A DNA stretch of 57,638 bases from Thermoplasmatales archaeon (GCA_030595715.1 JAUVCN010000002.1:1-57638), one strand, 5' to 3'. Counted from the first letter of the stretch, positions 10,696 through 29,520 are shown. Notes: generated by a model from the letters alone, not told the origin. A program made the numbers and translations.

Positions 10696-10730
10696 TGGGG
10701 TGTATGGGTCAGGATACCATTGAACAATTC

Positions 10731-10826: not shown

Positions 10827-10946
10827 ACACAAACGTGAAAAAATCAAAATTTTACATGTCCCAATATTCACACCCTGCATTATCCATTCAAGGATCCTCG
10901 ATAATGAATAATGAATGGATAGAAAAGTGCAGGGAGAGGGATTCGA
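10827..10946. repeat. Direct repeat copy A: duplicate of the last 18 nt of tRNA-Leu plus ~100 nt of its 3' flank
   Basis: The core at 10855-10946 (92 nt) matches 11077-11168 with one mismatch. It contains gcagggagagggattcga (acceptor/T-arm 3' end of the tRNA) and the 10-bp-stem hairpin tatccattca/tgaatggata. Confidence 0.8.
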
Positions 10947-11048
10947 TACAGCCAAATCCTTACTGGATTTCGCGTACATTGAGGCATAGTTATTGAAGTG
11001 ATGCCTCAATGACCAAGGTTCGAATGTTTGCACAATCCCAGATTGTGC

Positions 11049-11168
11049 ACACACGTGAAAAATCTATTATTTTTCACATGTCCCAATATTCACACCCTGC
11101 ATTATCCATTCAAAGATCCTCGATAATGAATAATGAATGGATAGAAAAGTGCAGGGAGAGGGATTCGA
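11049..11168. repeat. Direct repeat copy B (the authentic 3' flank and 3' end of tRNA-Leu)
   Basis: Same sequence as copy A, 222 nt away. It continues into the intact tRNA. Confidence 0.8.
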
Positions 11169-11233
11169 ACCCACGAACCACTAAGGATCGGATCTTAAGT
11201 CCGACGCCGTTGGCCAAGCTAAGCTATCCCTGC
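11150..11233 (-). tRNA. tRNA-Leu (anticodon UAA), class II with a long variable arm; CCA not encoded
   Basis: The reverse complement reads GCAGGGATAGCTTAGCTTGGCCAACGGCGTCGGACTTAAGATCCGATCCTTAGTGGTTCGTGGGTTCGAATCCCTCTCCCTGC plus discriminator A. Acceptor stem is 7 bp. Anticodon stem TCGGA/TCCGA with loop CTTAAGA. T-loop is GGTTCGAATCC. There is one U-U mismatch in the T-stem. Confidence 0.85.
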
Positions 11234-11291
11234 AATATTTTTATTTCAGCAAAAGCAGGGATAGTATTTAGGGCCAACGGCGTCCCGAGAA
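11211..11291. repeat. 81-nt unit 1: tRNA-Leu 5' 23 nt, 21-nt spacer, and an inverted copy of the tRNA 5' half
   Basis: Inverted arms gacgccgttggcc...ctatccctgc (11203-11233) and gcagggatag...ggccaacggcgtc (11255-11284). The mismatched centre reads TAAATACTAT on the tRNA strand, a possible TATA box. Confidence 0.75.
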
Positions 11292-11374
11292 CTTCGTTCG
11301 AGGTTGTGACGCCATGATCGGTTTAGTGAAACCGATAGATTCCGTCAACGCTTATTACGAAATAAAAAGGGTTG

Positions 11375-11455
11375 TGGCCAAGCTAAGCTATCCCTGCGAT
11401 ATTATTTATTCTGCAAAAGCGGGGATAGTATTTAGGGCCAACGGCGTCCCGAGAA
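11375..11455. repeat. 81-nt unit 2: second copy of unit 1 with only a 23-nt tRNA 5' fragment
   Basis: 75 of 81 positions are identical to 11211-11291, at an offset of 164 nt. No tRNA body follows. Confidence 0.75.
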
Positions 11456-11490
11456 TATTTTGTGATGATCTAAGAAGCAAATCTATATAG

Positions 11491-17000: not shown

Positions 17001-18117
17001 CACATGGACGCCATCTCAGCATTATCCGGAACCGGTAGAATTCGTCATCAGGGCAAGGGATCCGGAAGGAGCTTCTGCCGATCTCTCATTCACGCTCAAC
17101 ACTACTTTCATTGACAACCCACCCGATCTTGTTGATCATCCAGACACAGTATTATTCGACACCCGGGAATGGGTATTCCCTTTCCAGTTGATCGATCCGG
17201 AGGAACACAGGATAGTTGTTAAGGTATTGGAAGCCCCGGAAGGGCTTGAATACAGTCTTGTCACTCAAAACATCACGTGGACACCTTCCGTTACCCAGAT
17301 CGGGTCCTTTAACCTATCAATGGAGGTGACCTCGACCAATTTCATTATCTATTTCAACTATACATTGGAAGTGATCCAGTCTCCAAGAGATTGGACCTTC
17401 ACATTGGAAGGACTCGAAACCGGTCAAACATTTAAAGGAAGTATACAGATCGGTGGTGAGCTCGTTCTCACTCCAAGTGAGATCGAAAAAGTATTGATCC
17501 GGATAGGTGAAGGAGAATGGATGGAGGCAACGTTTGCAGAAGGTAGATGGGCATATGACCTTGATACGACCAAATTCGAAGATGGGGAGTATACCATACA
17601 GATCAGGGCTTTCGATGGTGCTGTCTATTCCAATACGGAATCAATCACCGTCACATTCAAGAACGAGGTGGAAAGAACATCTCCACTGATATACATCCTG
17701 ATCGCCTTCATCATCCTGATCCTGATAGGTCTGATCGTAGGTGGTTTCTTGCTATTCCGAAGGGCTCAATCCAAAAAGGAAGAGGCAGAGGTCAAAGCAC
17801 GCCAGGAGGAAGCTTTGAATGCATCTAAGAGGTCAATGGATGTTTTCCTCGAAGAAACCGGCTCGGACCTCGACAGCAATATCGATTATTCATCATTGGA
17901 CCTGACAGAACAGGATGCCGAGGGGAAGGACATGTCCCAGATCGATGAGATCTTTCAGCCATTGAACATACCAAATGAGGAGTTGCAGGATAGTGATTTC
18001 GATATCCCGGAGGATCCTCTTTCAAATGTAGCCGTTTCAGAATCTGTTGTTCCATCCAGCGAACCTTTCATGGGAGAATCCATGCAGATCGAAGACATAG
18101 AGGATGTTTCCGGATAA
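14056..18117 (+). CDS. Integrin-alpha-like surface protein: FG-GAP repeat beta-propeller, He_PIG/cadherin-like Ig domains, a TM and a ~120-aa acidic cytoplasmic tail
   Basis: 1353 aa with an N-terminal signal/anchor. Repeated FG..h..gDhNgDG..DhhhGAP units (AADLNDDGETELIIGAP, VGDMNGDGIDDVAVAS, FGDMDNDNINEIIVGS). DGVNDAPAIS and FEYQFRAVDPDPGDRLTY are He_PIG-like motifs. TM LIYILIAFIILILIGLIVGGFLLF. Confidence 0.85.
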   Translation: MRTYKTLFMFILTAILIFPAYMIGSSDPSTNEGNIITPTREGELDFQVIDETMIPSTTEKPLNSTYFIPIPEGSTVLSASASVSVKPLTDEGDEYPNDAWINVAGRSKEYIFNNEEVSFQGAWGRNYQSSDGLLNTSEFTTSSGSEKVRFSLPKNASITSATFNITGYQRAEEIIETNVSGITAGSHFGEVIRVLGDTNNAGSDEVLVSAPMDSVGAGRVYYLYIDTLTDHVRALSFASISQSNANFGASISGVFNYHDSVNDYIAIGAPSDQLNKVGSVRVYQYRANMGSSVVDIMIIGNNTGDLFGSAIEAADLNDDGETELIIGAPDAEGGLGVVYVFSIDSTGAKLYTAINGSSGEEHYGKDISVGDMNGDGIDDVAVASDSYVRVYLGGSTIDVIADAKFDPVGDSGQQGGVISSMKFMGDTGPGLETLAVGIPISVSGAVVIYNGGSTIDTIMDLKLVPGVRVEEFGSSIGFGDMDNDNINEIIVGSSYSSGGANVAKVFKRSSSSAWKDVPTKGNVGDRFSYSVGIADLRGHDDIFGDVIIGAPQFIGSSTSGPGKIYHFDHFDISTLPSNSPFISINGNTVWTYQEDHLYSTVTSGDVSASINSYLSSTSPDYNSDHEGFVYIDILFGSLTSLNIERSNRFRVSGYDIRYDETILFDDMTSDINTYINLELGIEKKIEIDGKTHIMVPFTFSAATPGRIYIDTIYIELDEIPYFEDRPDIIHVLEDSFNDNVLDLYSVFSDDLTADPYLNISVTATGTDSKFINLYIKDHRYLAVDLTYGPDTNGDKERDNANWTGTIPILFTVIDDIGGRFISPLIDLTVDGVNDAPAISQDPPRIIGQDDLFTYSPGAVDDELDDINYTLDMSRSPENMSIDHEFGTVIWRPGPWDVGMNNWSLVLSDGVDERRYTFSLDVNNEPDDPIFVSPAPVVPDGVLVGSTFEYQFRAVDPDPGDRLTYIIVFPVQGAGIEIQTGLFTWTPSQHYPEPVEFVIRARDPEGASADLSFTLNTTFIDNPPDLVDHPDTVLFDTREWVFPFQLIDPEEHRIVVKVLEAPEGLEYSLVTQNITWTPSVTQIGSFNLSMEVTSTNFIIYFNYTLEVIQSPRDWTFTLEGLETGQTFKGSIQIGGELVLTPSEIEKVLIRIGEGEWMEATFAEGRWAYDLDTTKFEDGEYTIQIRAFDGAVYSNTESITVTFKNEVERTSPLIYILIAFIILILIGLIVGGFLLFRRAQSKKEEAEVKARQEEALNASKRSMDVFLEETGSDLDSNIDYSSLDLTEQDAEGKDMSQIDEIFQPLNIPNEELQDSDFDIPEDPLSNVAVSESVVPSSEPFMGESMQIEDIEDVSG

Positions 18118-18306: not shown

Positions 18307-18708
18307 ATGGGTTGGTTCAGAAAGAAGGCAGAGTTGGAGGAGGATTATCCAGAGGATGATTACCATACAGGTAGAGCCTATATTGATCTAGGCCTCCTGA
18401 AAGGCAGAGAGACGGAGACTGCAAGATCGGGCGGTGGCCCTTTCATCAAGTTCGCCGATATCGATGGTTACAGGCAGATACCTGAACTTTCGAATATGGT
18501 TTACGAAGGCAACATCCTTGTTCTTGATTTCACACCTATAGCAAATGATGATCTTGAGTTAAAAAGGACCATCACCGAGCTAAAAAGGGTCGTTGAGGAC
18601 ATTCAAGGGGATATTGCTGGTATCTCTCAGAATCTCCTCATAATAGCCCCCAAAGGCTTTTGCATTGATAAAAAGAAGATGAAGAGACTTCAGAAGAACA
18701 GGTTGTAA
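18307..18708 (+). CDS. sepF: Cell division protein SepF (archaeal FtsZ membrane anchor)
   Basis: 133 aa. N-terminal amphipathic MGWFRKK. The core YIDL...IKFADIDGYRQIPELSNMVYEGNILVLDFTPI...ELKRVVEDIQGDIAGISQNLLIIAPKG matches the archaeal SepF pattern. Confidence 0.85.
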   Translation: MGWFRKKAELEEDYPEDDYHTGRAYIDLGLLKGRETETARSGGGPFIKFADIDGYRQIPELSNMVYEGNILVLDFTPIANDDLELKRTITELKRVVEDIQGDIAGISQNLLIIAPKGFCIDKKKMKRLQKNRL

Positions 18709-18734
18709 TACCGATTCACTGAAGATGATCGTTC

Positions 18735-19331
18735 ATGGATGAAAAGATCCACATAAATTGCCCTGGATGTAGTGATGCGTCCCTTGATATCATCAATGAC
18801 GAGATGACCATACCACATTTTGGAGATGTAATAATATCAACATTGATCTGCCAAAAATGTGGTTATCGCACCTCTGATGTCATTTCTGTTGGATCAAAAG
18901 AGCCCAACAGATATTCTATACATGTTACAAGGTCAGAAAATCTGTCGGTCAGGGTAATAAGATCATCCACCTCTGTCGTCATCATCCCGGAAATGGGTGT
19001 TCGAATAGATCCAGGGATCATTCAAGAAGGATACATTACAAATGTTGAAGGGGTTCTCCATCGAGTGCTTCCCATTCTTGAACAGATACTTCAGGATATA
19101 TCCCTTGATCCCGGATCATTCGATGATGCTGAAGAACGGATCAGTAGAACCGTAACTTTGATAGAATGGATCAAAATCGTCCTGGAAGAGAGAATGGAGC
19201 CTCAATATTATTTCCATCTTGTTCTGGAGGACCCAACCGGTAACTCCGCTATCGTCGATGAGAATACTGCAATTGAAAAAGAGTTGCTCACCGAAAAAGA
19301 GGTCGTTGAACTTACGGGTAATATCTCCTAA
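18735..19331 (+). CDS. ZPR1-type zinc-finger protein
   Basis: 198 aa. CPGC-x(25)-CQKC zinc finger followed by the ZPR1 A-domain-like beta region, as in the archaeal C4-type Zn-finger family. Confidence 0.8.
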   Translation: MDEKIHINCPGCSDASLDIINDEMTIPHFGDVIISTLICQKCGYRTSDVISVGSKEPNRYSIHVTRSENLSVRVIRSSTSVVIIPEMGVRIDPGIIQEGYITNVEGVLHRVLPILEQILQDISLDPGSFDDAEERISRTVTLIEWIKIVLEERMEPQYYFHLVLEDPTGNSAIVDENTAIEKELLTEKEVVELTGNIS

Positions 19332-19351: not shown

Positions 19352-20041
19352 TCAAACACCCGTTCGATCAGGTGACCATATTACCTTATGGGTCTGTATC
19401 ATGACCCTGACCCTGGAAAAGATCGATCGTTCAGTTTCATCATCATGGTCCTTTATCTTATTGATCAGTTCTTCCACTATTCTGAAACCCTCTCTATTAT
19501 CGCAAGGGGTCATGATCAAATTGCATGAGGGTCTGTGATCCTTGATGAAAGAAATGGCATGAACAAGATCATTTTCATCTTTGATGATGAATTTTAACTG
19601 ATCATTATCCAGTAATTCGGATAGATTCCCCACAAGAAAGCTTTTTCCTTCGCCGGATGAAGGCAATTTCACATCCATCGATATCATGAGGTCATCTGTT
19701 CTTGTTTCAATGATGGAAATATCCTGAGCCCCATTGGTCTCAACATCCACACGATACCCTTCTTCCGACAAATAAAGTATCAATTGCATAACATCATCTT
19801 GCAATAGAGGTTCTCCTCCGGTTATGCAGACAAGATCGATCTTCAATGACCTAACACTATCCATTACTTCATGGACATCCATCGATTCTCCCGAATCCAT
19901 TGATAACGCATATTGAGTATCGCACCAGGAACATCTGAGATCGCATCCCGCCAATCGGATGAACGTGGTTGGTATCCCGCTGTGTATCCCTTCACCCTGT
20001 ATCGATGAAAAGATCTCATTTACGATCAGTACCATCTTCAT
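19352..20041 (-). CDS. queE: 7-carboxy-7-deazaguanine synthase (radical SAM)
   Basis: 229 aa. IFSSIQGEG, FIRLAGCDLRCSWCDT radical-SAM cluster and ITGGEPLL. Overlaps queC by 4 nt. Confidence 0.9.
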   Translation of the reverse strand: MKMVLIVNEIFSSIQGEGIHSGIPTTFIRLAGCDLRCSWCDTQYALSMDSGESMDVHEVMDSVRSLKIDLVCITGGEPLLQDDVMQLILYLSEEGYRVDVETNGAQDISIIETRTDDLMISMDVKLPSSGEGKSFLVGNLSELLDNDQLKFIIKDENDLVHAISFIKDHRPSCNLIMTPCDNREGFRIVEELINKIKDHDDETERSIFSRVRVMIQTHKVIWSPDRTGV

Positions 20042-20712
20042 TCCTCATATTCCAATGGATCATCCATACCTACTTCTTTGAAACCATTTGATCTGAACAA
20101 GCAGGTATCGCATCTTCCACACGCTTTTTCTCCTCCGGTATAACATGACCAGGTCAGGCCATAATCGATCCCAAGGTCGATACCTTTTCGGATTATATCT
20201 GCTTTCGACATATCGATGATCGGTGTTCTGATGTCAATGGGTTTCCCAAGAACACCTCTTTTTGTGGCAAGTGATTGGGCCTTATCGAAAGCCTCGATGA
20301 ACTCCAACCTGCAATCCGGATATCCGGAATAATCCATTGCAGTAACACCTATGAAAACCGCATCCGCATCAATAGCCTCGGCCCAGCTTACCGCCATGGA
20401 TAGGAATACCAGGTTCCTTGCCGGAACATATGTATTAGGTATTCCTTCCATTTCCGATACAATACGATCAGTTGGAACGTCTGAATCATATGTCAAAGAG
20501 GACCCTGAAAAGAGGCCGTTCGGAAGCTTCATTATCCTGTGTTCCTCCACCCCCACCGATCCTGCAATATCCTCTGCACTCTTTATCTCCCTGTCATGTC
20601 TTTGTCCGTAAAGTATGGTCAATGCATACAACTGGAATCCTTCCTTCTTTGCCATTGCCAGGACCGTAGACGAATCCAGTCCTCCGCTCAGAAGGACCAC
20701 TGCTTTTTTCAT
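20038..20712 (-). CDS. queC: 7-cyano-7-deazaguanine (preQ0) synthase
   Basis: 224 aa. PP-loop VVLLSGGLDSST and C-terminal Zn site SCYTGGEKACGRCDTC. Confidence 0.9.
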   Translation of the reverse strand: MKKAVVLLSGGLDSSTVLAMAKKEGFQLYALTILYGQRHDREIKSAEDIAGSVGVEEHRIMKLPNGLFSGSSLTYDSDVPTDRIVSEMEGIPNTYVPARNLVFLSMAVSWAEAIDADAVFIGVTAMDYSGYPDCRLEFIEAFDKAQSLATKRGVLGKPIDIRTPIIDMSKADIIRKGIDLGIDYGLTWSCYTGGEKACGRCDTCLFRSNGFKEVGMDDPLEYEE

Positions 20713-20715
20713 GCC

Positions 20716-21210
20716 TTATTCGCTCCTCATTTCTTGTGATGCCCAAGCTCCCTGTCCCAATCCTTCATCAATTCCAAGTTCGATCTTTGTGATATTGTCC
20801 TTGAACTCGAATTCATCGATCAATCTAAAAAGAAGATATTTGGACATCTCCTCAACGGTTGTTGTGGGTATGGGTAGATACTTCACGTCGGATGTTGGAA
20901 ACATGTATCGCTTTCCGGCCATGTTCACCGATACGGTAACATCATTTTCATCAATGCTTATGGATATATCCTTGTTATCTGTCGGTATGAGGGTCATATG
21001 GTCCAGATCATCCGCGAAATGCCTCAGGGCCTTCTTTATCTCTCCAAAATCTATCAACATGTTGTCTCTGTTCATTGATCCATGGATCCTCAAATGGATA
21101 CAGTATGAATGGCCGTGCAGCCTCGAGCATTTATCATGTCTCAGGAGCATATGGCATGCAGAGAACTTTATACCCGTTTTCCATCCATCGAGTTCCAGAC
21201 GCCTTTCCAT
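20716..21210 (-). CDS. queD: 6-carboxy-5,6,7,8-tetrahydropterin synthase
   Basis: 164 aa. PTPS motifs FSACHML and CSRLHGHSY. Confidence 0.9.
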   Translation of the reverse strand: MERRLELDGWKTGIKFSACHMLLRHDKCSRLHGHSYCIHLRIHGSMNRDNMLIDFGEIKKALRHFADDLDHMTLIPTDNKDISISIDENDVTVSVNMAGKRYMFPTSDVKYLPIPTTTVEEMSKYLLFRLIDEFEFKDNITKIELGIDEGLGQGAWASQEMRSE

Positions 21211-21231: not shown

Positions 21232-22830
21232 TTAAAGATTGTTCTGTGTATCAACTCTTTTGATGAGCCATTTCCTTGCCGGAATGGCTATTATTAGCAT
21301 AATGATCGGTAACACAACTATGGGATTCAACAAAGGTAATTCGGCCAATCCTTGTTCGGACCCCTGTAGATTACCCGGTTCGAACTTCTTGTCGACATAC
21401 CTTTTGATCTTGCCATGTTCTTCATATCTTACAGAGTTGAACGATGTATCGATAACAACCTCAACGAATGTAGGATGTTTCATTGAGAAGTAATTGTAGT
21501 ATCTGTCCAGGTTGTATATGGTCCTACCCTTATCATCTTCGATATAGCTGCCATTATCTATCCAATCGGTTATCCTGAATGGATCCCGGAAGAGGAATTC
21601 GAAGTTAACAGGATCGATCGGGGCAATGACCGGTGTACTAGATCCTTTTTTAGGTATCACCACATTGAACCAGCCGTGACCGCCCCATTGCTGATTATAT
21701 GTGTCATATAGATATCCGATCTCAAGCCAGGCGGGGATACCCACTGCGCGGCAGAACGATGCCATGAGCAGCGATTGATCATCACAATCACCATACCAAT
21801 CGGTTAGACATCCTGATGCCCATTTCGGCATGTCACCATAGATCCTTGAATCCCTTATCCTCTCCTCATCGCTTGTATAGTTGAAATGGTCTGTCATCCA
21901 ATTATAGATGGCCTTCACTTTCCCATAGACCGTCGGCTCATCCCGGGTTATCGTTTCCGCAATTGACTTGATCTTTGGATGCGAAGGATTGTATCTGTAA
22001 TGGTCAGGTATGCCATTGTTATCCTCATCTTCAATGTCGCCATTCTTAAGGACCGGCCAATCATCTTGAAGATAGGTATTCTTGTATGATTGTGGAATAT
22101 CATCTATTGTACCAGAATCCTCTTCGGTCATTTTCCATTCATATGTATACAGCCTCATTTCATATCTAGCGATGTAATTGTACAAGCCAGGTACTCGGTT
22201 CTCCTGCCTCCATCCGGATAGCACATTGAACTCATTGTTAAAATCAACCTCTCCTTTCGTCGGTGGAGGCGTCATCAATATACTTTCCACATCCTGAACA
22301 ATGAAATCCCTAGTGCCGGTTTGCGGTTCCAGGGGAATATCAAAAGGTGTGGCTATCTGGATATCAATAAGATCGGCCGCTCCATTTCTTATGGTAACAT
22401 CGAAATTCAGTTCAACAGTTACATTTACCCATTCAGGAAGGTTCTGATAAGGTCTCATCAGGTCCTTAAGAGAATCCAATCCGGCCGCATCCCTGATATC
22501 AGTTAAAGGTTGGACAGGCGCAAACAAAAGAAAAACAACGATAAAGGTTATCAGGATCCTTCCTGTCCATTTAACAACAGGGTGTCCTATGAATGGCCTT
22601 AGACCCTTATCCCGTTTTTTCCGTCCTTTCTTCATAGAGCTCTTCTTCGAACCCTTCGACCCTTGTCTCCTTGAATTTGAATTGTTTTCTTCTTCATCAT
22701 CAAGATCTTCTTCTTCATCATCAATGATGTCATCTATCTCGTCTTCCTCTTCGATAATATCGTCCCAATCATCATCATCATCGAGGATGAGTTTCACCGC
22801 TTTCTTCCTGGCCATTGTATACCAACCCAA
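21232..22830 (-). CDS. Transglutaminase-like (Cys-His-Asp core) membrane protein with an acidic cytoplasmic N-terminus
   Basis: 532 aa. N-terminus KKAVKLILDDDDDWDD..., basic patch, TM, extracellular domain. TGase core WYGDCDDQSLLMASFCRAVGIPAW ... GGHGWFNV ... IDPVN. C-terminal TM. Confidence 0.8.
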   Translation of the reverse strand: MGWYTMARKKAVKLILDDDDDWDDIIEEEDEIDDIIDDEEEDLDDEEENNSNSRRQGSKGSKKSSMKKGRKKRDKGLRPFIGHPVVKWTGRILITFIVVFLLFAPVQPLTDIRDAAGLDSLKDLMRPYQNLPEWVNVTVELNFDVTIRNGAADLIDIQIATPFDIPLEPQTGTRDFIVQDVESILMTPPPTKGEVDFNNEFNVLSGWRQENRVPGLYNYIARYEMRLYTYEWKMTEEDSGTIDDIPQSYKNTYLQDDWPVLKNGDIEDEDNNGIPDHYRYNPSHPKIKSIAETITRDEPTVYGKVKAIYNWMTDHFNYTSDEERIRDSRIYGDMPKWASGCLTDWYGDCDDQSLLMASFCRAVGIPAWLEIGYLYDTYNQQWGGHGWFNVVIPKKGSSTPVIAPIDPVNFEFLFRDPFRITDWIDNGSYIEDDKGRTIYNLDRYYNYFSMKHPTFVEVVIDTSFNSVRYEEHGKIKRYVDKKFEPGNLQGSEQGLAELPLLNPIVVLPIIMLIIAIPARKWLIKRVDTQNNL

Positions 22831-22910
22831 TGAAGAATGAATTCCATTCCGTATGAATAAAGAGAACTGGACAGCTATTTAGACTTTAGGAGTAAAATAT
22901 CATATGAACA

Positions 22911-23819
22911 TCAGAGCTTCAAACGGATGGGGACTTCCAATCTCGCCTCATTTCCCTTTCCATCCCTGGCACTGTACACGACCCTGAAATTCTCGAACTC
23001 TGATGTACTGGATAATGAGCCATTTGCGACAGACAAGCTTACGATGTACATGTGGTCCGATCTTACATCATCTTCTGATATGAGCCACCTTTCATCCAGT
23101 TTGTTGGATACATTCTTATCCTGATCGAAATCCCCATCGTACCTGCCGATCGTGATATTCATCGAACCACCCTCCTCCATGTTTACCCAGCTTCCATCCG
23201 AATTTTGTCGCTGGAAGATAACACTCTTTTCATCAAGTTTCCAGTTGTCGGTGATCGTTGAATATATCCTTATCTCTTCGATATCTTCGATGTCGGTAAT
23301 AGAAATGAAATCGGTCTTCTTATCATCTAGATACATATCGTCTCCAAGATAGTGATAGACATGATCGTCTGCAACCATCACTTCTATCAGTGGTTCCGCT
23401 ATCGTAGGGTCGGCAAAATCCGAAAATGGGGGGTTCATGGACAAAAGCCATACAGCGAACCATGCAACAACATACATGAATCCGTTCTCCAACCATTTCT
23501 TCCATTCAAGGTTCTTCACATCGATACCGAACCTGGTGAACATATACACAGCGACAAATGCGAAGATAACGGGTATTATCAAGGGAATTGTAAATAGCCC
23601 TCCCACACCCATAGAATGTAGCAGGGTCATGAATCCAAAAGTAACGATCCCCGCGACAAGAGCGGTTGCTAGTGAGATATAGATCAACTTGGCTGACCTG
23701 TTCTCTGTCTGGAGGAATTCTGTCTCATCGAATTCCGGGGGTTTAAAGGCCGGACGTTTCTTGTCCTCTTCCGGTTCTTCCTCCTCGGATTCCTCCCTGA
23801 TTATCCTTCGCTTTGCCAA
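22911..23819 (-). CDS. Hypothetical 3-TM membrane protein with an extracellular beta-rich C-terminal domain
   Basis: 302 aa. Charged N-terminus MAKRRIIREESEEEE, three hydrophobic helices, ~170-aa C-terminal domain. Lies co-directional between the HerA-like and TGase-like genes. Confidence 0.65.
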   Translation of the reverse strand: MAKRRIIREESEEEEPEEDKKRPAFKPPEFDETEFLQTENRSAKLIYISLATALVAGIVTFGFMTLLHSMGVGGLFTIPLIIPVIFAFVAVYMFTRFGIDVKNLEWKKWLENGFMYVVAWFAVWLLSMNPPFSDFADPTIAEPLIEVMVADDHVYHYLGDDMYLDDKKTDFISITDIEDIEEIRIYSTITDNWKLDEKSVIFQRQNSDGSWVNMEEGGSMNITIGRYDGDFDQDKNVSNKLDERWLISEDDVRSDHMYIVSLSVANGSLSSTSEFENFRVVYSARDGKGNEARLEVPIRLKL

Positions 23820-23888
23820 AATGTCTCACCCACCGGATGTGTGTCGGGACCATTATATCAAAGATTAAAAACTTTTAGGTGACGAGGA

Positions 23889-26800
23889 TCAAAGGGCCAT
23901 ATCAGGAGAATCCATGATCTCTTTCAGGAAAGGTGTCATTGCGTTATCAACCCTACCTGAAACTCCGTCGACCGCCACAAGGCGGATCCTTCCTTTCCCC
24001 GCTATCTTTGCGATATAGTAAGGATACATTATCTCATCTAACTGAAGTATGGTAAGATCATCGGATAATATGCCGATCAACTTTTCTCCATCCTTTCTGG
24101 TAATAAATGGCTTAATGAACGGTTCTTCCAATCCTTCCACCCAATCAGGATGGATATTCGGATCCTTTGACCAGGGCTTCTTAGGTATATCCATATCATC
24201 GGAAAGAAAGAACAGGTTGACATTTCCCTCCAATGACGTCCTATCGACAATTCCCTTCTTCTGTAACGAAGTTAGGGACCTTCTCACGTCCTTCAGGGCA
24301 AGCTTTGCTCTTCTCGCGATCGTGAGATCTTCCCTTTTCCGGTGGTTGACCGCACCGTATACCTTTGCCTCGATATCTGTCATCTTCAACAATTTCAATA
24401 GTCCCTTCGATCGATCCAATCCGATCCTTGAACCGATCACTATCTCGCCTGATATCGCATCGATAAAGAGGTCACCTTCCTTCTGGTCCCTGAAAAGTGA
24501 CCCCTTGTATCCGAGAAGGAATCGATACAGGGGGATATAGGCCGGAACTATCTCCTCTAGATTCTCTTTTGGACCTCTGAGAAGTGATCTCTTGATGGTC
24601 TTCTTAGCAGATTCCGATGCGGTCTTCGAACCGATGATGGGGATCACAGCAACCGCTTGCTTACCTCTTTTAAGGACCTTCTTCTTCATCTTATTATGTT
24701 TCCTCTCAGCCTCTACTGGCGGTAAGGCCTTTTGAGGACCCACTGGTTCTTTCTTCCTTTGTACCTTTTTAATAGATCTTGCTCTTACATCTATGGTCTC
24801 ATCCTTTTTCTCGTGAATGTCCATTCTTTCTTTCATTTCCTTCAATTCGGATCTCAGGATCGATCCCATCAGATCAAGGCGATCTATGTTCTCTTTCCTA
24901 TCGGCCTCCATCCTCTCAAGTATCTTGATCAGAGCCTGGTCCCGGATATCATCACGGTGATAAGGTATCAGCTGCACCTCCTTCTTCATATTCTCCACTT
25001 CGGAAATGAGCTCCTTCAATTTCCTGTCACTCTTCCTTTTCATTTTCTTGTTGGACTCGTCATCCCATTTGAGGACCATACCCCTGACGCTTGTTTTCCT
25101 GCCGGTTTTGCCCTTTGATTTATCTTTTTTCAATTTATCCTCAAGCTCGTCGATCTTTCTGACCAACTTCTCATTCTCCTCTCTCGCTTCTTTGGTAGTG
25201 TCTACGAGGTCCTGGATTCGGTCCTCTTTATTGATCGATCTGTCATCTTCCGTTTTTATAAGTTCCTCTTCATGATCCAGTATCCTCTCGAGCAGTTTTC
25301 CTTCATTTCCATCCTTTGACAGACCAAGGACATCACACATCCATCTGAGATCTTCCTTCAAAAGTCCTCCTTCATGTTCTGGTTTGACCTCATCGATTTC
25401 GACTTTTACCCCTATCTCATCTTTACTTGATCCCGGATCGATCATGTCTTCCAGAGATCCGATCCGGATATCGGCCTCGGAAGCTATCATCGCTATGGTA
25501 TCTTTATCCATCCCAAGGTCAGCTCTCATTATCAGGTTCCCTTCGTTCACTATTACCTTCTCATGCAGGATCTCCAACAATCTTTTTACGGGTTCCTTTC
25601 CATTGTTGGCAACTATATAATCGAGTCCATCAAGCAATATGATCCTCTGTTTACTGCCAGAAAGGAATGAACCGGACTCCATGGAAATATCCTGAAGGGA
25701 TGTTGGAGGAATATTATCATCACCGGGTGTGGATGATAACCAGAATCTCTTTTTTATCTCTAGTGCAGTGCCAACAGGATATAGGTCCGGAGGCATCCTC
25801 GAGAACAGTACCGCGTTTCTATCAGCAGGAAGAGAGTCAAGAAGCTGGACCATAACCTCCTTTGATTGGTCGGTCACAAGGATGACCTTGCCTTTTTCAA
25901 TGTGAACTGTTGGATGTGTCTCCAAAACATCCTTGGGTCCCTTTGCCATGATCCCTTTTCTTATTGTTGAACCTGAGCCATCGGATCTTTGTATTGCTGT
26001 TGGTCGTGAAACGTCCGACCTTCCTTCGGATATGGTGTAATCACCTGAAATTGGGACCTTCTGAATATGTTCGACCTTCCTCTCTATGAAGGCCTTGGGC
26101 ATCGCTGATGATCCTGCATGATGGGAGAACCTTGGTCTTATCTTTAGCAGGAACGATCTCTGCTGTGTCCTCTGGTCTGCCATTATCCCCGTACCAACCG
26201 GTATTGCCCTTATGAAATCCGAATTGGCAAATTCTGCAGGAAGTTTTGCAGGCACCCTTCTTCTGAGAGCGGTCATATCATCTTCAAGAGCGAGATTGTG
26301 TCCGATCAGAAGATCGACCTGAGATAGGATCTCATCCGATGTAGAGGCTGGCCGTTGGGTTGCAAGGACCAGTGCGCAACCTGGTCTCCTACCCTGTTTG
26401 GCGTATTCAACCAAGGCCTCCGTAGCAGGTGTCTGACCTTTATGTGGAAGGATAATGTGTGCCTCATCGATCAGCAGCCAGGTCACAGGAATGATATCCT
26501 GGTCAAGTTCATCGTAATCCTCTCTTTCTTCCATTCTGGCAGAATGTATCCTTGCAGACAGTATCTTTCTTGCGACTATTCCTGTTATCAAACTTCTTTT
26601 CTCATCACCCAATCGTGGATCGCTTACATCGAGGATCGTTACTCTATTGGATGAACTGACCTCCTTGAGAGGTGTTCCTTCAACACTGAAAACACCCCAT
26701 GCTGAAGCCGCGTTGAACCTTGCAATGATAGATCTTCTTGTCTGCGGTGTGAATCCACCCGTTTTGCTGGTTATCGTGATGGATGTTTCTATACACTGGA

Positions 26801-27554
26801 TTATATCACCTATCGAATAAAGGTTCCTCCTTCCGGAAACATGGACTATCCTTCCTTCGTTCACTGAATCGTAACCCTTTCTAATCTGATCAATGACAGA
26901 CCCTATCAAAAGACCCTGGGTCTTGAACCTTGTAACATCAAATACCTGGCACCAATCTTCAGTTTCCATCTCGGAGACGCTTATCGAAAATATGCCATCT
27001 ATCGATGATGTGGTCTCCCCGAGTGAACCTTCCGGAACAAGAACCTTGACCTCTGGAAATGAATGCGGTTCCAGCCCCCATCTTTTCAATATCTCCTTTT
27101 CCTTCTTCGACCTGTTCTCGTTCTTCATCGACCAGAATATCCCGATCGGGTCGATCATAACGACCCCGACACCAATTGATGATCTTATTAATTCCTCTGC
27201 GAAGATCCCCAGAGTATATGATTTACCACTTCCCCTTTTTCCGCAGATGAAAATGATATGCGGAAAAGCAGCGTCGAGGAATACCTTTTTACCAAAAAGG
27301 TCCACTCCGGTGTCCTGATGTTCCCCTACTGCACCTATCTCGAGAAGTCCCTTCCTTCTCCATTTTTTGTGAGCCGATCCATTTCTTCCCAATACAACAT
27401 AGCCATCTTTATCGTCGATCAGGGGAACAAGAGGTGCTCTAACCCTTAGTATTCCTTCCTCTTCAATATCTATCGTCCACGGATCATCCATGTTATCTTC
27501 CTTTGAAGCCGGTGATCCCATGTCAGATCCTTCTACCCCATCCGAATGATCCAT
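23889..27554 (-). CDS. Multidomain HerA/FtsK-superfamily (DUF87-like) ATPase fused to a DUF835-like module, a possible SAP/HeH motif, a long coiled coil and a C-terminal wHTH-containing region
   Basis: 1221 aa. Walker A FICGKRGSGKSYTLG (aa 103-116), Walker B WLLIDEAHIILP (aa 359-370), ATQRP. DUF835-like RIILLDGLDYIVANNGKEPVKRLLEILHEKV (aa ~600-700). LRWMCDVLGLSKDGNEGKLLERIL (aa ~736-760). K/E coiled coil aa ~770-930. wHTH-like LTIARRAKLALKDVRRSLTSLQKKGIV (aa ~1076-1103). Confidence 0.8.
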   Translation of the reverse strand: MDHSDGVEGSDMGSPASKEDNMDDPWTIDIEEEGILRVRAPLVPLIDDKDGYVVLGRNGSAHKKWRRKGLLEIGAVGEHQDTGVDLFGKKVFLDAAFPHIIFICGKRGSGKSYTLGIFAEELIRSSIGVGVVMIDPIGIFWSMKNENRSKKEKEILKRWGLEPHSFPEVKVLVPEGSLGETTSSIDGIFSISVSEMETEDWCQVFDVTRFKTQGLLIGSVIDQIRKGYDSVNEGRIVHVSGRRNLYSIGDIIQCIETSITITSKTGGFTPQTRRSIIARFNAASAWGVFSVEGTPLKEVSSSNRVTILDVSDPRLGDEKRSLITGIVARKILSARIHSARMEEREDYDELDQDIIPVTWLLIDEAHIILPHKGQTPATEALVEYAKQGRRPGCALVLATQRPASTSDEILSQVDLLIGHNLALEDDMTALRRRVPAKLPAEFANSDFIRAIPVGTGIMADQRTQQRSFLLKIRPRFSHHAGSSAMPKAFIERKVEHIQKVPISGDYTISEGRSDVSRPTAIQRSDGSGSTIRKGIMAKGPKDVLETHPTVHIEKGKVILVTDQSKEVMVQLLDSLPADRNAVLFSRMPPDLYPVGTALEIKKRFWLSSTPGDDNIPPTSLQDISMESGSFLSGSKQRIILLDGLDYIVANNGKEPVKRLLEILHEKVIVNEGNLIMRADLGMDKDTIAMIASEADIRIGSLEDMIDPGSSKDEIGVKVEIDEVKPEHEGGLLKEDLRWMCDVLGLSKDGNEGKLLERILDHEEELIKTEDDRSINKEDRIQDLVDTTKEAREENEKLVRKIDELEDKLKKDKSKGKTGRKTSVRGMVLKWDDESNKKMKRKSDRKLKELISEVENMKKEVQLIPYHRDDIRDQALIKILERMEADRKENIDRLDLMGSILRSELKEMKERMDIHEKKDETIDVRARSIKKVQRKKEPVGPQKALPPVEAERKHNKMKKKVLKRGKQAVAVIPIIGSKTASESAKKTIKRSLLRGPKENLEEIVPAYIPLYRFLLGYKGSLFRDQKEGDLFIDAISGEIVIGSRIGLDRSKGLLKLLKMTDIEAKVYGAVNHRKREDLTIARRAKLALKDVRRSLTSLQKKGIVDRTSLEGNVNLFFLSDDMDIPKKPWSKDPNIHPDWVEGLEEPFIKPFITRKDGEKLIGILSDDLTILQLDEIMYPYYIAKIAGKGRIRLVAVDGVSGRVDNAMTPFLKEIMDSPDMAL

Positions 27555-27685
27555 ATCTGATCTCTCCAGGTCCCTTGGGTCCTTGTGGGTGATAGTTATC
27601 TGATGACTAATTATTTTCCATTGGAAGTTATTTGATTTTTTAATATATCATTCATCATAATGTTCCTTGAAATGATAATTCTCTT

Positions 27686-27700
27686 AAAAAATTATATAAA
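27686..27700 (+). promoter_or_regulatory. Putative TATA box for the K/E-rich coiled-coil gene
   Basis: aaaaaattatataaa lies ~70 nt upstream of the ATG at 27766. Strong SD ggaggtga at 27754-27761. A second TATA-like element for the divergent HerA-like gene is at ~27636-27650 (tgatatattaaaaaa on the minus strand). Confidence 0.45.
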
Positions 27701-27765
27701 CTGATTGTTCCGTTAACGTCTGTCTTACGAATGGGAGTGAGCACACTTCACATGGAGGTGAAAAT

Positions 27766-29457
27766 ATGCCGAGGAAGGCCAATGTAAAATGGGCGGAAGA
27801 AGATGATGAGATGGAAAAGATAACTTCCAGGAAAAGAAAATCAAGATCCAAACCTAAAATTGAGGTTGAATATGACGATGCGGAAGAGGTAATTGCCAAA
27901 CCCAAAAAAAGGACAAAGGGTGCGATCGTGATCGAGGACGATGATGAGGACCCGATCGTTGAAAAGAAGGTTAAGAAGGCAAAGGTCATCGTCGAGGATG
28001 AACCGGAAGATATTGAAGAGCTTCTCGAGGAGGAAGAAGACCTGGAAGCCTATAGAATAAACGAGGATCTCAAAAAAGCCTTGGAAATGAAAGATGAGAT
28101 CGAAGCATCCTATGAATCCATTATCAAGGAAAGAACATCTCTCATCAGCAATGAAAAAGGCCTTCTTTCGAAGATGGAGAGTTACATCAAAGCTCATCTT
28201 CTCTCAATTCAAGATGATAGAGAGGACCTTGAAAAACGTGAGGAACGCATCAAGAAAGAGAGAAAGGACCTCATGGACAAGAGGGAGGACCTTCTCAAGG
28301 AGATCAAAGACCTTGAAAGTGAAAGAGATGAGTTCCTCGAACTCAGAAGTAACATCGAGGAAGAGAGAGAGACCTTCGAGGCACAGAAATCAGAGATCGA
28401 GAAAGAGTGGAAAGGCCTGGGAAAAGATAAGAAATTACTCGAAGAGAGGGAAATGCATCTGTTCGATGAGAAAGAAAAGGCCAAGAAGGAAAGGGAAGAA
28501 CTCACAGATGTAGAGGGCAAGATCAAGAAAGAGAGAATGCTCATCGACAAGGAATCAGAATCACTTGAGAGAAAGAGGGAACTATATCAATCCGACGTGG
28601 CTGAATTCCAGAAAGAAAGACAAGACCATGAGACCAAGTTCGATGAGTTCCATGAGAGATATAACAAATTCCGTGTGGAGTTCAAAGAATATGAAAGGGG
28701 ACAGGCCAAGCTTGAATCCTGGGAAAAGAGGCTTTCTGATGAAGAAGAACAGCTCATAAATGAGCAGAAGAAGCTGAAAAAGGAAAAGGATTCACTTGTC
28801 AAGGATCAGATGGAACTTGACAATTCTCGTGAGGATATCATTTCAGAAAAGAAGGACATGGAAAACAACAAGAAACTCTTTGATAAAGACAAGAACAGGA
28901 TCCTCTTGAAGGAAGAGGAGATCGAAGATGAGATGAAATCCATCAGGAACGAGAGAAAATCCCTTCATGAGGATCTCGATTCATTCGATGAAAGAAAGGA
29001 CAATTACATCTCGATCGATGATCACAATTCGGAGATCGAGGAATTGAAGGAGAAGATAGCCGATCTCGAATCCGTCAAGCACTCCGAAAAGGAAGACATG
29101 AAGGTTCCAAAGAAGAAGTTTATGAAGAAGAAGGCAAAGATAGAAGTTGAACCGGAACCTGAAGACGATGATGAAGAGATCATCAGCAGGCCCAAGAAGA
29201 AGAAGAGGAAGAAGGCTGCAGTTGTAATCGATGATGAGGATGAAGAAGACGATGATTACAACCCTTTCCTCGTGAAAAAGAAGGAAGAAAAGAAAACGGT
29301 TGAGCCCGAGGAAGAACCGGAGGAAAAGAAGTATAAACCGAAGGTTGTGAAATGCTCAAACAAAGATTGCGGCGCCAAGATAGTGGTCAAATCATCCAAG
29401 AGGCCTATTATCGTCAAATGCCCGAAATGCGGAAAGAAGGGAAAGCTCACAAAATAA
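27766..29457 (+). CDS. Highly charged K/E-rich coiled-coil (or single-alpha-helix) protein with a C-terminal zinc ribbon
   Basis: 563 aa. About 400 aa of uninterrupted E/K/R/D-rich helix-type sequence. C-terminus CSNKDCGAKIVV-x(13)-CPKCGKKG. Repeated basic-hydrophobic-acidic motifs at both ends. Confidence 0.75.
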   Translation: MPRKANVKWAEEDDEMEKITSRKRKSRSKPKIEVEYDDAEEVIAKPKKRTKGAIVIEDDDEDPIVEKKVKKAKVIVEDEPEDIEELLEEEEDLEAYRINEDLKKALEMKDEIEASYESIIKERTSLISNEKGLLSKMESYIKAHLLSIQDDREDLEKREERIKKERKDLMDKREDLLKEIKDLESERDEFLELRSNIEEERETFEAQKSEIEKEWKGLGKDKKLLEEREMHLFDEKEKAKKEREELTDVEGKIKKERMLIDKESESLERKRELYQSDVAEFQKERQDHETKFDEFHERYNKFRVEFKEYERGQAKLESWEKRLSDEEEQLINEQKKLKKEKDSLVKDQMELDNSREDIISEKKDMENNKKLFDKDKNRILLKEEEIEDEMKSIRNERKSLHEDLDSFDERKDNYISIDDHNSEIEELKEKIADLESVKHSEKEDMKVPKKKFMKKKAKIEVEPEPEDDDEEIISRPKKKKRKKAAVVIDDEDEEDDDYNPFLVKKKEEKKTVEPEEEPEEKKYKPKVVKCSNKDCGAKIVVKSSKRPIIVKCPKCGKKGKLTK

Positions 29458-29479
29458 TACCTGAAATCGAGAGACCCCG

Positions 29480-29520
29480 GGCCAGTTCTTTTTGAACTGG
29501 CCTTTTTTTATTTTTTTTAT
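29480..29520 (+). terminator. Stem-loop plus long T-tract terminator
   Basis: ggccagtt (29480-29487) pairs with aactggcc (29495-29502), followed by T7-A-T8. Lies 23 nt after the stop, between convergent genes. Confidence 0.5.

Follow-up and report, generated by a model that had tools for sequence, protein, structure and literature searches.

The 1221-aa protein encoded at positions 23889..27554 (minus strand) of the window, the 57,638-nt stretch of DNA analysed here, belongs to an uncharacterised family of HerA-clade ring ATPases that spans the archaea and is vertically inherited, and it represents the form that this family takes in Thermoplasmatota. The ORF call is accompanied by orthologues, and the protein has several domains. 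The reading that we tentatively prefer is that it translocates DNA as a hexamer, in a core role in chromosome function or division. A first-pass annotation listed a HerA-type P-loop, a DUF835 domain, a SAP-like motif, a charged region, and a winged helix-turn-helix (wHTH) between two related beta modules, and this inventory is right. The four open reading frames that it reported are real; their coordinates, lengths, and gaps and the 211-nt AT-rich region were all reproduced exactly. It knew of no described system with this fusion, and no published description of the family was found in the searchable literature. The fusion is not a singular case: the ATPase core recurs among the archaea of GTDB, in at least 579 species.

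Domain architecture of the ATPase

The 1221-aa protein carries a HerA-fold motor that is predicted from its motifs and fold to be catalytically intact. The motor, a beta region at the N-terminus followed by a RecA-like core (residues ~22-481; 26112..27491, minus strand), is assigned from Pfam, AF2, and Foldseek, and its DUF87 match scores 39.1 bits (cut-off 23.2). Walker A (G105-S112, GKRGSGKS; 27219..27242, minus strand) and Walker B (L360-H366, LLIDEAH; 26457..26477, minus strand) can be read directly from the sequence. Across 20 distant homologues (alignment A1), G105, R107, G108, G110, K111, and S112 of Walker A are invariant, as are D363 and E364 of Walker B. The AF2 model of residues 22-720 has a pLDDT of 89, with the ATPase domain mostly above 90, and its top 50 Foldseek matches are all HerA (among them 9x1m at 1e-18, 7wrx, and 4d2i). 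Target-normalised TM-scores of these matches are 0.38-0.58, and identity to solved HerAs is only 13-16%. Pfam HerA_C is matched in relatives of the protein. The NCBIfam HerA equivalogs all fail on the protein itself (26-37 bits against cut-offs of 800-970), and Pfam FtsK_SpoIIIE, at 11.4 bits, falls far under its cut-off of 24. In the syntenic loci with Pfam annotation, no NurA, Mre11, or Rad50 was found within ~9 kb, which bears out the earlier statement that NurA is not nearby.

The motor is followed by a region that varies within the family. A predicted disordered linker (residues ~483-555; 25890..26108, minus strand) is poorly conserved and has an AF2 pLDDT below 50 over model residues 462-525. 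Next is a DUF835 domain (residues ~556-706; 25437..25889, minus strand), which passes Pfam with 55.8 bits against a cut-off of 33.1, as DUF87 passes its own, and is modelled at pLDDT 90-98 as a compact unit of alpha/beta fold. The domain lacks a P-loop (KVILVTDQSKE) and retains a Walker-B-like strand (IILLDGLDYIV); DUF835 has been classed as 'iKaiC', an inactivated KaiC-like domain (PMC5847659). The SAP/HeH-like motif (residues ~733-765, LKEDLRWMCDVLGLSKDGNEGKLLERIL; 25260..25358, minus strand) has no Pfam match in the 1221-aa protein, but orthologues pass at the aligned position (P0030 with 26.4 bits against 23.9, P0045 via SAP_new25). A K/E/R/D-rich region (residues ~770-960; 24675..25247, minus strand) varies among orthologues and is missing from short family members. 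The first-pass annotation saw a K/E coiled coil here; the charge is confirmed (51% of residues), and a coiled-coil spacer is plausible from the partial heptad pattern. The DUF835 domain, SAP motif, and charged region together form an insertion specific to Thermoplasmatota.

The C-terminal part is a wHTH flanked by two PepSY-like modules, and its AF2 model (residues 961-1221) has a pLDDT of 95.4. Module 1 is a beta-alpha-beta unit (residues ~965-1048; 24411..24662, minus strand) with pLDDT above 90, and module 2 (residues ~1137-1196, YPYY...VDGVSGRVD; 23967..24146, minus strand) has invariant P1178 (P218 in alignment A6), D1196, and G1200. The two are homologous to one another (HHalign 93%, E=3e-7), and PepSY matches in relatives are weak. 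The wHTH (residues ~1052-1117; 24204..24401, minus strand) is below the Pfam TrmB threshold in the 1221-aa protein (E=0.02) but above it in orthologues P0045 and P0077. The C-terminal model matches winged helices of the MarR/ArsR/Fur/TubR type in Foldseek, and no PDB counterpart was found there for a wHTH flanked by PepSY-like modules. The module is present in 778 protein clusters and nearly always forms one chain with a DUF87 ATPase, as a fusion (59 of the 68 scanned).

Distribution of the family and its gene neighbourhoods

The constant part of the family is the ATPase, joined in euryarchaeal and DPANN members by the C-terminal wHTH module. Full-length orthologues in Thermoplasmatota MAGs are 43-60% identical to the 1221-aa protein. 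The core is 33-82% identical in its carriers, which belong to the Thermoplasmatota, Hadarchaeota, Methanofastidiosia, DPANN, and Asgard. The ATPase tree tracks taxonomy, indicating vertical inheritance, and the loci lie amid housekeeping genes. Inteins, which are typical of DNA-metabolism enzymes, are found in some members. The downstream co-directional gene varies by lineage (family F8 in Asgard, F37 in Methanofastidiosia, F1 in Thorarchaeota, and others elsewhere). It is often translationally coupled to the ATPase, with gaps of -11 to +16 nt, and no nuclease or other enzyme signature was found in the downstream proteins.

In the window the ATPase is followed by two co-directional genes, with gaps of 69 and 80 nt. 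The first (22911..23819, minus strand) encodes a 302-aa membrane protein with a charged N-terminal tail, an EMC6_arch-like TM region (44-125), and a C-terminal domain of ~175 aa. It was described earlier as a 3-TM protein; two to three TM segments are found, and its Pfam family, EMC6_arch (28.5 bits against 26.7), had gone unrecognised. Homologues of it are confined to the clade of the window and lie on contigs that also carry the ATPase. The EMC6_arch family has been proposed to be the housekeeping partner of archaeal YidC (PMC8675477); the 302-aa protein is not a CedA-like channel. The second gene (21232..22830, minus strand) encodes a 532-aa transglutaminase-like membrane protein, a predicted cysteine protease. 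As the first-pass annotation proposed, it matches Transglut_core (E=2.7e-16) and has two TM segments (~92-110 and ~498-516); the catalytic pattern GDC...GHGW...D can be read in it. Like the 302-aa protein, it has a long charged N-terminal tail.

A 563-aa K/E-rich protein (27766..29457, plus strand) is encoded divergently from the ATPase. Its description as a charged protein ending in a zinc ribbon stands: it is 54% charged, and the C-terminal four-Cys ribbon (C-x(2-4)-C...C-x2-C) is kept in all nine full-length orthologues. The 211-nt region between the two genes (27555..27765) is AT-rich, with 33.6% GC against ~44% in the whole window, and a promoter scan with a bacterial-type promoter model gave results at chance level.

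The EMC6-like, transglutaminase-like, and zinc-ribbon genes are probably syntenic neighbours, that is, bystanders and not dedicated subunits. In the window clade a block of ~20 kb is collinear and includes the unrelated QueD/C/E, TtuA, Cdc6, ZPR1, and SepF together with the ATPase and its neighbours. Linkage of the three genes to the ATPase is unproven because this whole block is syntenic. SepF and orc1/cdc6 lie 5 kb and 6 kb from the ATPase, and their proximity carries little weight for the same reason. The three genes had been taken as possible partners, and they are indeed conserved beside the ATPase within one clade; they are absent in all other lineages, including the next outgroup, where the neighbourhood is not conserved.

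The Asgard loci have a different context. The order Snf7-ATPase-(F8)-Snf7 is found in 15 of the 20 Asgard-type loci and also in L089, giving 16 Asgard loci. Vps4 adjoins in the Hel-type loci, and the outer flanking genes vary between lineages. This position between two ESCRT-III genes, of which no mention was found in the searchable literature, suggests a function connected with cell division. The Thorarchaeota orthologues do not adjoin Snf7, and neither Snf7 nor Vps4 is found in the window or in the loci of its clade. The Asgard forms have no wHTH module, so DNA tethering is not universal in the family; their C-terminal domain is of another kind, and a helical extension is present at the N-terminus.

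Possible functions

The preferred reading is a DNA translocase that handles the chromosome. By its fold, the ATPase would form a hexamer like HerA and move double-stranded DNA through the pore. The wHTH and SAP modules may serve to load the ATPase onto chromosomal DNA or to tether it there, and the DUF835 domain and charged spacer could act in regulation or in higher-order assembly. In the cell, the protein may carry out core chromosome handling coupled, as in FtsK, to membrane scission or cell division, a coupling suggested by the Asgard orthologues embedded between two ESCRT-III genes next to Vps4. Counted in its support are the HerA fold with intact motifs, the taxonomy-following tree, the housekeeping context, and a motor strongly conserved across phyla yet just 13-16% identical to solved HerAs. 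The fusion to the C-terminal module, the wHTH, the orthologue SAP motifs, the inteins, the Asgard Snf7/Vps4 context, and the proximity of SepF and orc1/cdc6 in the window clade were counted likewise. Counted against it are the Asgard forms lacking the wHTH, the Thorarchaeota loci without adjoining Snf7, the window clade without Snf7 or Vps4, and the protein-binding winged helices of ESCRT systems.

A somewhat unlikely alternative is that the ring remodels proteins or polymers and, as a second activity of the Vps4 type, threads or takes apart polymers that are ESCRT-III-like or coiled-coil. Protein-binding adaptors would then be the wHTH and PepSY-like modules or, in Asgard, the helical N-terminal extension, and in the window the K/E zinc-ribbon protein would be substrate or partner. 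The Asgard location between two Snf7 genes and beside Vps4 fits this proposal, and winged helices in ESCRT-II and CdvB bind proteins, not DNA (PMC11188069). The Asgard extension resembles helical repeats, a Thorarchaeota neighbour has sub-threshold MIT/TPR matches, and in the window clade the ATPase has a divergent neighbour that is helical and highly charged. However, that protein is clade-restricted and unrelated to Snf7 by HHalign, many ATPase-bearing lineages show no ESCRT genes nearby, and the 50 closest structures in Foldseek are all HerA. The solved HerAs among them, such as 4d2i and DNA-bound complexes, are called DNA translocases by their depositors. The usual ligand of SAP and MarR-type wHTH domains is DNA.

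Less likely still is a DNA-repair or end-processing variant of HerA whose lineage-specific effector is supplied by the variable downstream gene. HerA pairs with NurA, Sir2, or DUF4297, and the fold, the inteins, and the tight coupling of the downstream gene would suit such a pairing. The downstream proteins lack nuclease or enzyme signatures, however, and in the window clade the gene encodes a membrane protein. The absence of NurA, Mre11, and Rad50 nearby and the low NCBIfam HerA scores also argue against it.

It is improbable that the window genes form a real operon in which the ATPase docks at the membrane on the charged cytoplasmic tails of its two neighbours, EMC6-like and transglutaminase-like, for instance in the biogenesis or quality control of membrane proteins or in the processing of surface proteins. 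The co-directional arrangement and short gaps, the tails on both neighbours, and adjacency kept down to 43% ATPase identity are compatible with it. This adjacency does not discriminate, because the gene string runs on into QueD/C/E at even shorter gaps and the 20-kb block is syntenic. Downstream membrane proteins also occur in unrelated lineages (L004, L012, L014, L016, L052, and L084), but they are not homologous to those of the window. The partners are missing outside the clade, and EMC6-like proteins are proposed to be general YidC partners (PMC8675477).

A Ced-like or conjugation-like DNA transfer machine, the analogy drawn in the first-pass annotation, is very unlikely. A HerA/FtsK-superfamily ATPase with DNA-binding modules does adjoin membrane proteins, but its fold is that of HerA and not VirB4 or TrwB (Foldseek), and the neighbours, with two to three TM segments each, include no polytopic channel protein. 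The context is a syntenic housekeeping block close to orc1/cdc6 that lacks integrase and mobile-element genes; the ATPase is inherited vertically, and the neighbours do not stay with it outside the clade. The other role suggested there, in membrane or chromatin organisation, is closer to the evidence. Least probable of all is anti-phage defence of the HerA-plus-effector type: the PADLOC mad8 and HerA models match the ATPase core (E=1e-18 to 1e-7) and the downstream genes vary, but these matches are generic to the core, no partner gene matches any defence model, the NCBIfam antiphage HerA models reach 30-37 bits against cut-offs of 800-850, and a vertically inherited motor 45% identical across phyla in a housekeeping context is unlike defence islands.

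Comparison with known systems

The family shares its fold over the ~460-aa motor with HerA, known from the HerA-NurA DNA end-resection helicase and from the defence complexes Sir2-HerA, DUF4297-HerA, and TdpAB. DUF87, HerA_C in relatives, the Walker motifs, and basic residues are common to both. The 1221-aa protein differs in having 740 extra residues not known from HerA (DUF835, SAP, charged spacer, and PepSY-wHTH-PepSY) and no NurA, Mre11, Rad50, Sir2, or DUF4297 partner, and its family is separate, 33-82% identical across archaeal phyla and 13-16% identical to solved HerAs. Its DUF835 domain passes Pfam and has no P-loop, which fits an inactivated KaiC/RecA-like domain (PMC5847659). In the response regulators of archaea such 'iKaiC' output domains are fused to REC or PAS, whereas here the domain forms an insertion within a HerA-type ATPase. 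The Ced system (CedA/CedB) for DNA import in Crenarchaeota also pairs, conceptually, a HerA/VirB4-like ATPase with membrane proteins. No homology has been demonstrated; the window neighbours are EMC6-like and transglutaminase-like, with two to three TM segments each, their linkage is not conserved, and the context is one of housekeeping genes.

Vps4/CdvC and the present family are both ring ATPases, and the Asgard orthologues are directly flanked by Snf7 genes, as is Vps4. Vps4 is an AAA+ protein, whereas the 1221-aa family belongs to the HerA/FtsK ASCE group and has no MIT domain. FtsK/SpoIIIE is of the same superfamily and likewise joins a motor to a winged-helix module that recognises DNA (the gamma domain of FtsK). 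Unlike FtsK, the 1221-aa protein has no N-terminal membrane anchor, its structural neighbours are HerA, and its wHTH is flanked by PepSY-like modules. The genomic link to the scission machinery in Asgard points to a possible functional analogy with FtsK, in which the ATPase would clear DNA at division.

Domain structure and distribution of the ATPase family

At the level of fold, the predicted structure of the 1221-aa ATPase (23889-27554, minus strand) places it in the HerA clade of the FtsK-HerA superfamily. The DUF87 family of Pfam is matched at 39.1 bits against a cut-off of 23.2. Residues 22-720 were modelled with AF2 from an alignment of 62 sequences (mean pLDDT 89), and the model divides into a motor (about 22-481), a disordered linker (about 483-555), and a compact alpha/beta DUF835 domain (about 556-706). 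The motor consists of an N-terminal beta domain and a RecA-like core with a HerA-type helical insertion. Its best 50 Foldseek matches in the PDB are all HerA proteins, with 430-538 aligned columns and E values down to 1e-18. They include the HerA-NurA complex of T. kodakarensis (9x1m, E=1e-18), the HerA proteins of D. radiodurans and S. solfataricus (4d2i), and several antiphage HerAs, and the identity to these solved HerAs is just 13-16%. The Walker A motif G105-S112 (GKRGSGKS), the Walker B motif L360-H366 (LLIDEAH), Q400, and the arginine-finger candidates R389 and R433 are invariant in 20 distant homologues from different phyla. The conservation of both Walker motifs and several arginines across phyla suggests that the motor is active.

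The remaining domains fall between the motor and the C-terminus. DUF835 (PF05763) scores 55.8 bits at residues 564-690, against a gathering score of 33.1, and its sequence lacks the P-loop pattern GxxxxGK[ST]. Foldseek results for the entire 22-720 model are dominated by HerA-domain matches. A published classification (PMC5847659) places DUF835 among output domains, as an inactivated KaiC-like or "iKaiC" domain. Pfam gives no SAP match in the window protein, and SAP is above the cut-off at the aligned position in the orthologues P0030 and P0045. Charged amino acids make up 51% of residues 770-960, the heptad pattern there is partial, and a coiled coil is plausible from the sequence.

The C-terminal region forms a newly defined, conserved module, useful for annotation, whose fold is predicted with confidence and has no counterpart in the PDB. 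The AF2 model of residues 961-1221 (pLDDT 95.4, pTM 0.90) has a winged helix at about 1052-1117 between two beta-alpha-beta modules. The winged helix matches MarR, ArsR, Fur, and TubR in Foldseek; in Pfam the wHTH is below threshold in the window protein and passes in orthologues. HHalign identifies the flanking modules as homologues of one another (93%, E=3e-7). They bear a PepSY-like "[YF]P[LY]...D..xG" signature, and their beta-alpha-beta-beta topology is consistent with PepSY. All of the Pfam matches to PepSY are below threshold, with E=0.007 for the relative P0077 and others in 4 of 68 relatives, and Foldseek returned the wHTH only. Foldseek searches of the PDB and BFVD with the whole module found no counterpart, the wHTH part alone being matched. 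An exhaustive profile search found the module in 778 clusters. All the matches listed have it at the C-terminus or no more than about 35 residues away, and 59 of the 68 proteins scanned carry it fused to DUF87. Overall, Pfam, AF2, Foldseek, and HHalign bear out in substance what the first-pass annotation had described for this protein.

The fusion is not confined to one protein; it belongs to an archaea-wide family with three architectures. When one genome of each GTDB species was scanned, relatives turned up in at least 579 species, DPANN lineages among them. Protein searches gave full-length orthologues with 43-60% identity in Thermoplasmatota MAGs. The motor alone (about 450 aa) is 43-57% identical in Theionarchaea, Methanofastidiosia, MAGs labelled Methanomicrobia, Hadarchaeota, and several Asgard lineages. 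Judged by its sequence identity, which is about 45% between Asgard archaea and Euryarchaeota, the motor is among the better-conserved archaeal proteins, and its neighbor-joining tree tracks taxonomy. The short forms of euryarchaea and DPANN, at about 800-900 aa, comprise the motor, a linker, and the C-terminal wHTH module (HHalign 100%). The long Thermoplasmatota forms have the same plan and carry an insertion made up of DUF835, SAP, and the charged spacer. The Asgard forms have a helical N-terminal extension of about 250 aa, the motor, and a different C-terminal domain, which is related to that of the Thorarchaeota forms (HHalign 98.9%). Among relatives P0201-P0299, two or three of the 68 relatives contain inteins (Intein_splicing / LAGLIDADG_3). 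Inteins are typical of essential DNA-metabolism enzymes. All traced members belong to uncultured lineages, come from metagenomes, MAGs, or single-cell genomes, and have generic names, and look-ups of cluster members for a cultured host returned metagenomic entries only. Public annotations read just "DUF87", "DUF835", or "ATP-binding protein". We found no description of the family in the papers searched on HerA/DUF87 with ESCRT or Asgard, on DUF835, or on EMC6 in archaea.

Gene neighborhood in Thermoplasmatota

ORF calling placed the four genes of the locus exactly where the first-pass annotation had them. The ATPase gene is followed on the minus strand by genes for a 302-aa EMC6-like protein (22911-23819) and a 532-aa transglutaminase-like protein (21232-22830), with spacers of 69 and 80 nt. 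The gene for the 563-aa K/E protein (27766-29457, plus strand) is divergent, and the 211-nt spacer has a GC content of 33.6% vs. about 44% for the window. The K/E gene has a likely transcript end at 29479-29503 (plus strand), where a strong GC-rich hairpin of 10 bp, with a T-run after it, lies 22 nt past the stop codon. A scan with bacterial promoter and terminator models, which are not informative for archaea, gave chance-level results.

The 302-aa protein passes the EMC6_arch model (PF19094) marginally, with 28.5 bits against a gathering score of 26.7 over profile positions 6-84 of 87, and most of its orthologues also match. In a survey of nine diverse archaeal proteomes by Lewis and Hegde (PMC8675477), every proteome had exactly one EMC6-like protein, which they modelled as a partner of archaeal YidC; this makes a housekeeping identity plausible for the gene. 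The 532-aa protein matches Transglut_core at 60.2 bits against 23 (E=2.7e-16), and the pattern GDC...GHGW...D can be read in its sequence. The K/E protein is 54% charged and has only weak zinc-ribbon matches in Pfam; its four ribbon cysteines are kept in all nine full-length orthologues.

The neighborhood was surveyed by calling and clustering ORFs in 86 loci. The window order of K/E protein (divergent), ATPase, EMC6-like protein, transglutaminase-like protein, QueD, QueC, and QueE occurs in ten of the 86 loci, all in a single Thermoplasmatota clade. Two further members with ATPases only 43-45% identical retain an entire block of about 20 kb. This block begins with AA-kinase, FMN_dh, Cdc6, RDD, TtuA, a methyltransferase, a 423-aa protein, the K/E protein, and the ATPase, and continues with the EMC6-like and transglutaminase-like genes, QueDCE, ZPR1, SepF, and an FG-GAP protein. 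Conservation of the neighborhood in relatives holds inside the syntenic clade and fails outside it. The next outgroup (locus L088, 36% identity) and other DUF835-bearing Thermoplasmatota have different, non-homologous neighbors. Homologues of the 302-aa protein are confined to the window clade, where they lie on the ATPase's own contigs.

A genuine membrane operon of the ATPase with the EMC6-like and transglutaminase-like proteins is improbable. The three genes are co-directional and stay together throughout the clade, but adjacency cannot show a functional link here, because clearly unrelated genes of the block are equally conserved and have even shorter gaps. QueE, QueC, and QueD are 7-deazaguanine/archaeosine precursor genes, and they follow the transglutaminase-like gene on the same strand (19352-21210, minus strand), where the junctions are two gaps, of 21 and 3 nt, and one 4-nt overlap. 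Since their spacing is even tighter, co-directional spacing at this locus does not imply shared function. The apparent operon with membrane proteins is not evidence for a machine.

Profile comparisons did not link the neighbors of different lineages. HHalign among the downstream genes of families F13, F8 (Asgard), F1 (Thorarchaeota), and F37 (Methanofastidiosia) and the singletons from loci L004, L012, L014, L016, L021, L080, L084, and L088 gave nothing above 55% probability, and neither did the K/E protein against Snf7 or family F42. The sole hint is a generic zinc-ribbon match (55%) of the K/E protein to an L088 protein of the DUF5817 family. Small DUF5817-type zinc-ribbon proteins are found near the ATPase in two contexts (L001:5537-6019 and L088:7458-7997, both minus strand). 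Their ribbon is similar to the one at the C-terminus of the K/E protein, which may be accidental or may mark a weak association that recurs.

Several other features of the window lie near the locus. A SepF gene (133 aa) directly followed by one for a ZPR1-type zinc-ribbon protein (18307-19331, plus strand) is 5 kb from the ATPase, and the pair keeps its position in all syntenic relatives. SepF is a membrane anchor of FtsZ. An Orc1/Cdc6 gene (33347-34627, minus strand) is 6 kb away on the other side. The cumulative GC skew is lowest near 38 kb, a hint of a replication origin; a search of 34.5-38.5 kb gave no convincing or ORB-like family of repeats. The window also encodes three very large predicted surface proteins on the plus strand, of 1353 aa (14056-18117), 1329 aa (465-4454), and 852 aa (8137-10695). 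The largest has a TM segment and an acidic tail at its C-terminus, and its orthologues have FG-GAP and He_PIG repeats.

Linkage to ESCRT-III genes in Asgard archaea

The strongest neighborhood signal comes from Asgard archaea. Snf7/ESCRT-III genes flank the orthologue on both sides in 15 of the 20 Asgard-type loci, with ORF clusters, a Snf7 HMM, and Pfam in agreement. A contig labelled Lokiarchaeia (L089) brings the total to 16 (L002, L003, L024-L027, L029-L032, L034, L038, L039, L041, L047, and L089; ATPase at about 8001-11000 or 10001-13000). Three of the five Asgard-type loci that lack an adjacent Snf7 gene run into a contig end. In Hel-type loci Vps4 is directly upstream and a ubiquitin/E1/E2/UEV cluster adjoins. 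Downstream of the ATPase in Jord-, Frey-, Heimdall-, and Hod-type loci comes F8, a soluble protein of about 345 aa, in translational coupling. The F8 genes (L024:8802-9839, L026:12315-13382, L030:3885-4922, L031:9179-10231, L039:11918-12946, and L089:11067-12107) are spaced -11 to +16 nt from the ATPase gene. F8 has no Pfam or PDB match in profile searches and may be a dedicated partner of the Asgard ATPase. Because the genes outside the Snf7/ATPase core vary by lineage, this linkage carries far more weight than the block synteny of Thermoplasmatota.

The linkage is not universal. The Snf7 HMM was built from the Asgard loci and run on all ORFs, in six frames, from the window and from every locus. 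It found nothing outside Asgard except one weak match to a Thorarchaeota 775-aa protein (E=0.005), and it had no match in the window or in the loci of its clade. The Thorarchaeota loci (L060-L082) have a conserved context free of Snf7, with TrmI divergent upstream and a 121-aa protein downstream. Upstream there are also a wHTH protein with weak EAP30/Vps36 similarity, a 123-aa protein, the 775-aa helical protein, and V-ATPase subunit I. Of 11 members of the 775-aa family, 8 have sub-threshold MIT/TPR matches. Nothing significant came from searching the PDB and Pfam with profiles of F8, F1, and the 775-aa protein; the MIT/TPR matches below threshold were all that appeared.

Two loci carry labels that do not fit their contents. 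L029 (DATKTP010000243.1), labelled as the bacterium Candidatus Deferrimicrobium, has an Asgard-type ubiquitin/Vps4/Snf7 cluster, and L028 (DATKZI010000013.1), labelled Bathyarchaeia, has Heimdall-type neighbors. Both are likely to be mis-binned contigs in public MAGs.

Asgard ESCRT machinery is closely studied as a precursor of eukaryotic membrane remodelling. No HerA, DUF87, or P-loop gene is mentioned in the ESCRT comparative-genomics and Asgard gene-cluster literature that we examined, and one such study plotted the Hel_GB_B cluster, which contains the ATPase gene, without mention. If the Snf7-ATPase-Snf7 arrangement beside Vps4 reflects function, the ATPase would be an unrecognised component of Asgard ESCRT. 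Iyer and colleagues are said to have proposed in 2004 that HerA-like pumps do the job of FtsK in archaea, and a functional linkage would make this proposal testable. The window locus alone is of moderate interest; the presence of a conserved motor inside Asgard ESCRT-III operons, apparently undiscussed, raises that interest at the level of the family.

Possible roles and relation to known systems

Our leading interpretation, held tentatively and at somewhat less than an even chance, is that the ATPase is a hexameric dsDNA translocase with a core chromosome-handling role that would be coupled, by analogy with FtsK, to division or the scission of membranes. Its wHTH and SAP modules would load or tether it on DNA, and the iKaiC domain and charged spacer would serve in assembly or regulation. 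The intact HerA-fold motor, the wHTH (with SAP in orthologues), the wide vertical conservation among housekeeping genes, and the embedding among Asgard ESCRT-III genes argue for this role. Against it are the Asgard forms without the wHTH module, the absence of Snf7 and Vps4 near the ATPase in the window clade, and the finding that winged helices of ESCRT systems bind proteins (PMC11188069). A bolder and unlikely version makes the family the archaeal counterpart of FtsK, a HerA-clade pump that would clear or segregate DNA in step with scission and would be wired to ESCRT-III/Vps4 in Asgard archaea, while euryarchaeal forms like the present one would act alongside division based on FtsZ/SepF. 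Its DNA-loading and regulatory apparatus would be PepSY-wHTH-PepSY, joined in Thermoplasmatota by SAP and iKaiC. If true, it would be potentially ancestral to the eukaryotic coupling of ESCRT abscission with chromatin clearance.

A Vps4-like remodeller of proteins or polymers is equally unlikely; the protein-binding winged helices of ESCRT systems and the position among ESCRT genes in Asgard loci speak for it, and the HerA fold and the DNA-binding type of the SAP and wHTH modules speak against it. Less likely again, although ahead of the membrane operon, is a repair-type HerA with lineage-specific downstream effectors. The fold is that of HerA and the downstream genes do differ among lineages. 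Membership in the canonical HerA-NurA-Mre11-Rad50 repair helicase fails on scores and neighborhood. The ATPase reaches 26-26.4 bits against NCBIfam equivalog cut-offs of 800 and 970, and no NurA, Mre11, or Rad50 gene was found up to about 9 kb away in the syntenic loci annotated with Pfam, or in the remaining locus types.

The other known systems are more distant. Membership in FtsK/SpoIIIE itself is ruled out by a Pfam FtsK_SpoIIIE score of 11.4 bits against 24 and by the missing N-terminal membrane anchor; the ATPase has no TM segment, and its sole hydrophobic peak is a core beta strand. Ced-like DNA transfer, which the first-pass annotation had put forward as one hypothesis, is very improbable, as the membrane-protein neighbors have two to three TM segments and match EMC6_arch and Transglut_core, and no polytopic CedA-type channel is among them. 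Anti-phage defence of the Sir2-HerA, DUF4297-HerA, or MADS kind is the least probable of all, since PADLOC matches are generic to the ATPase core and include no neighbor, and NCBIfam antiphage HerA models score 30-37 bits, far below their cut-offs of 800-850. The ATPase belongs to a distinct, uncharacterised family, in which the C-terminal module is new and, in Thermoplasmatota, the iKaiC/SAP insertion is new as well.
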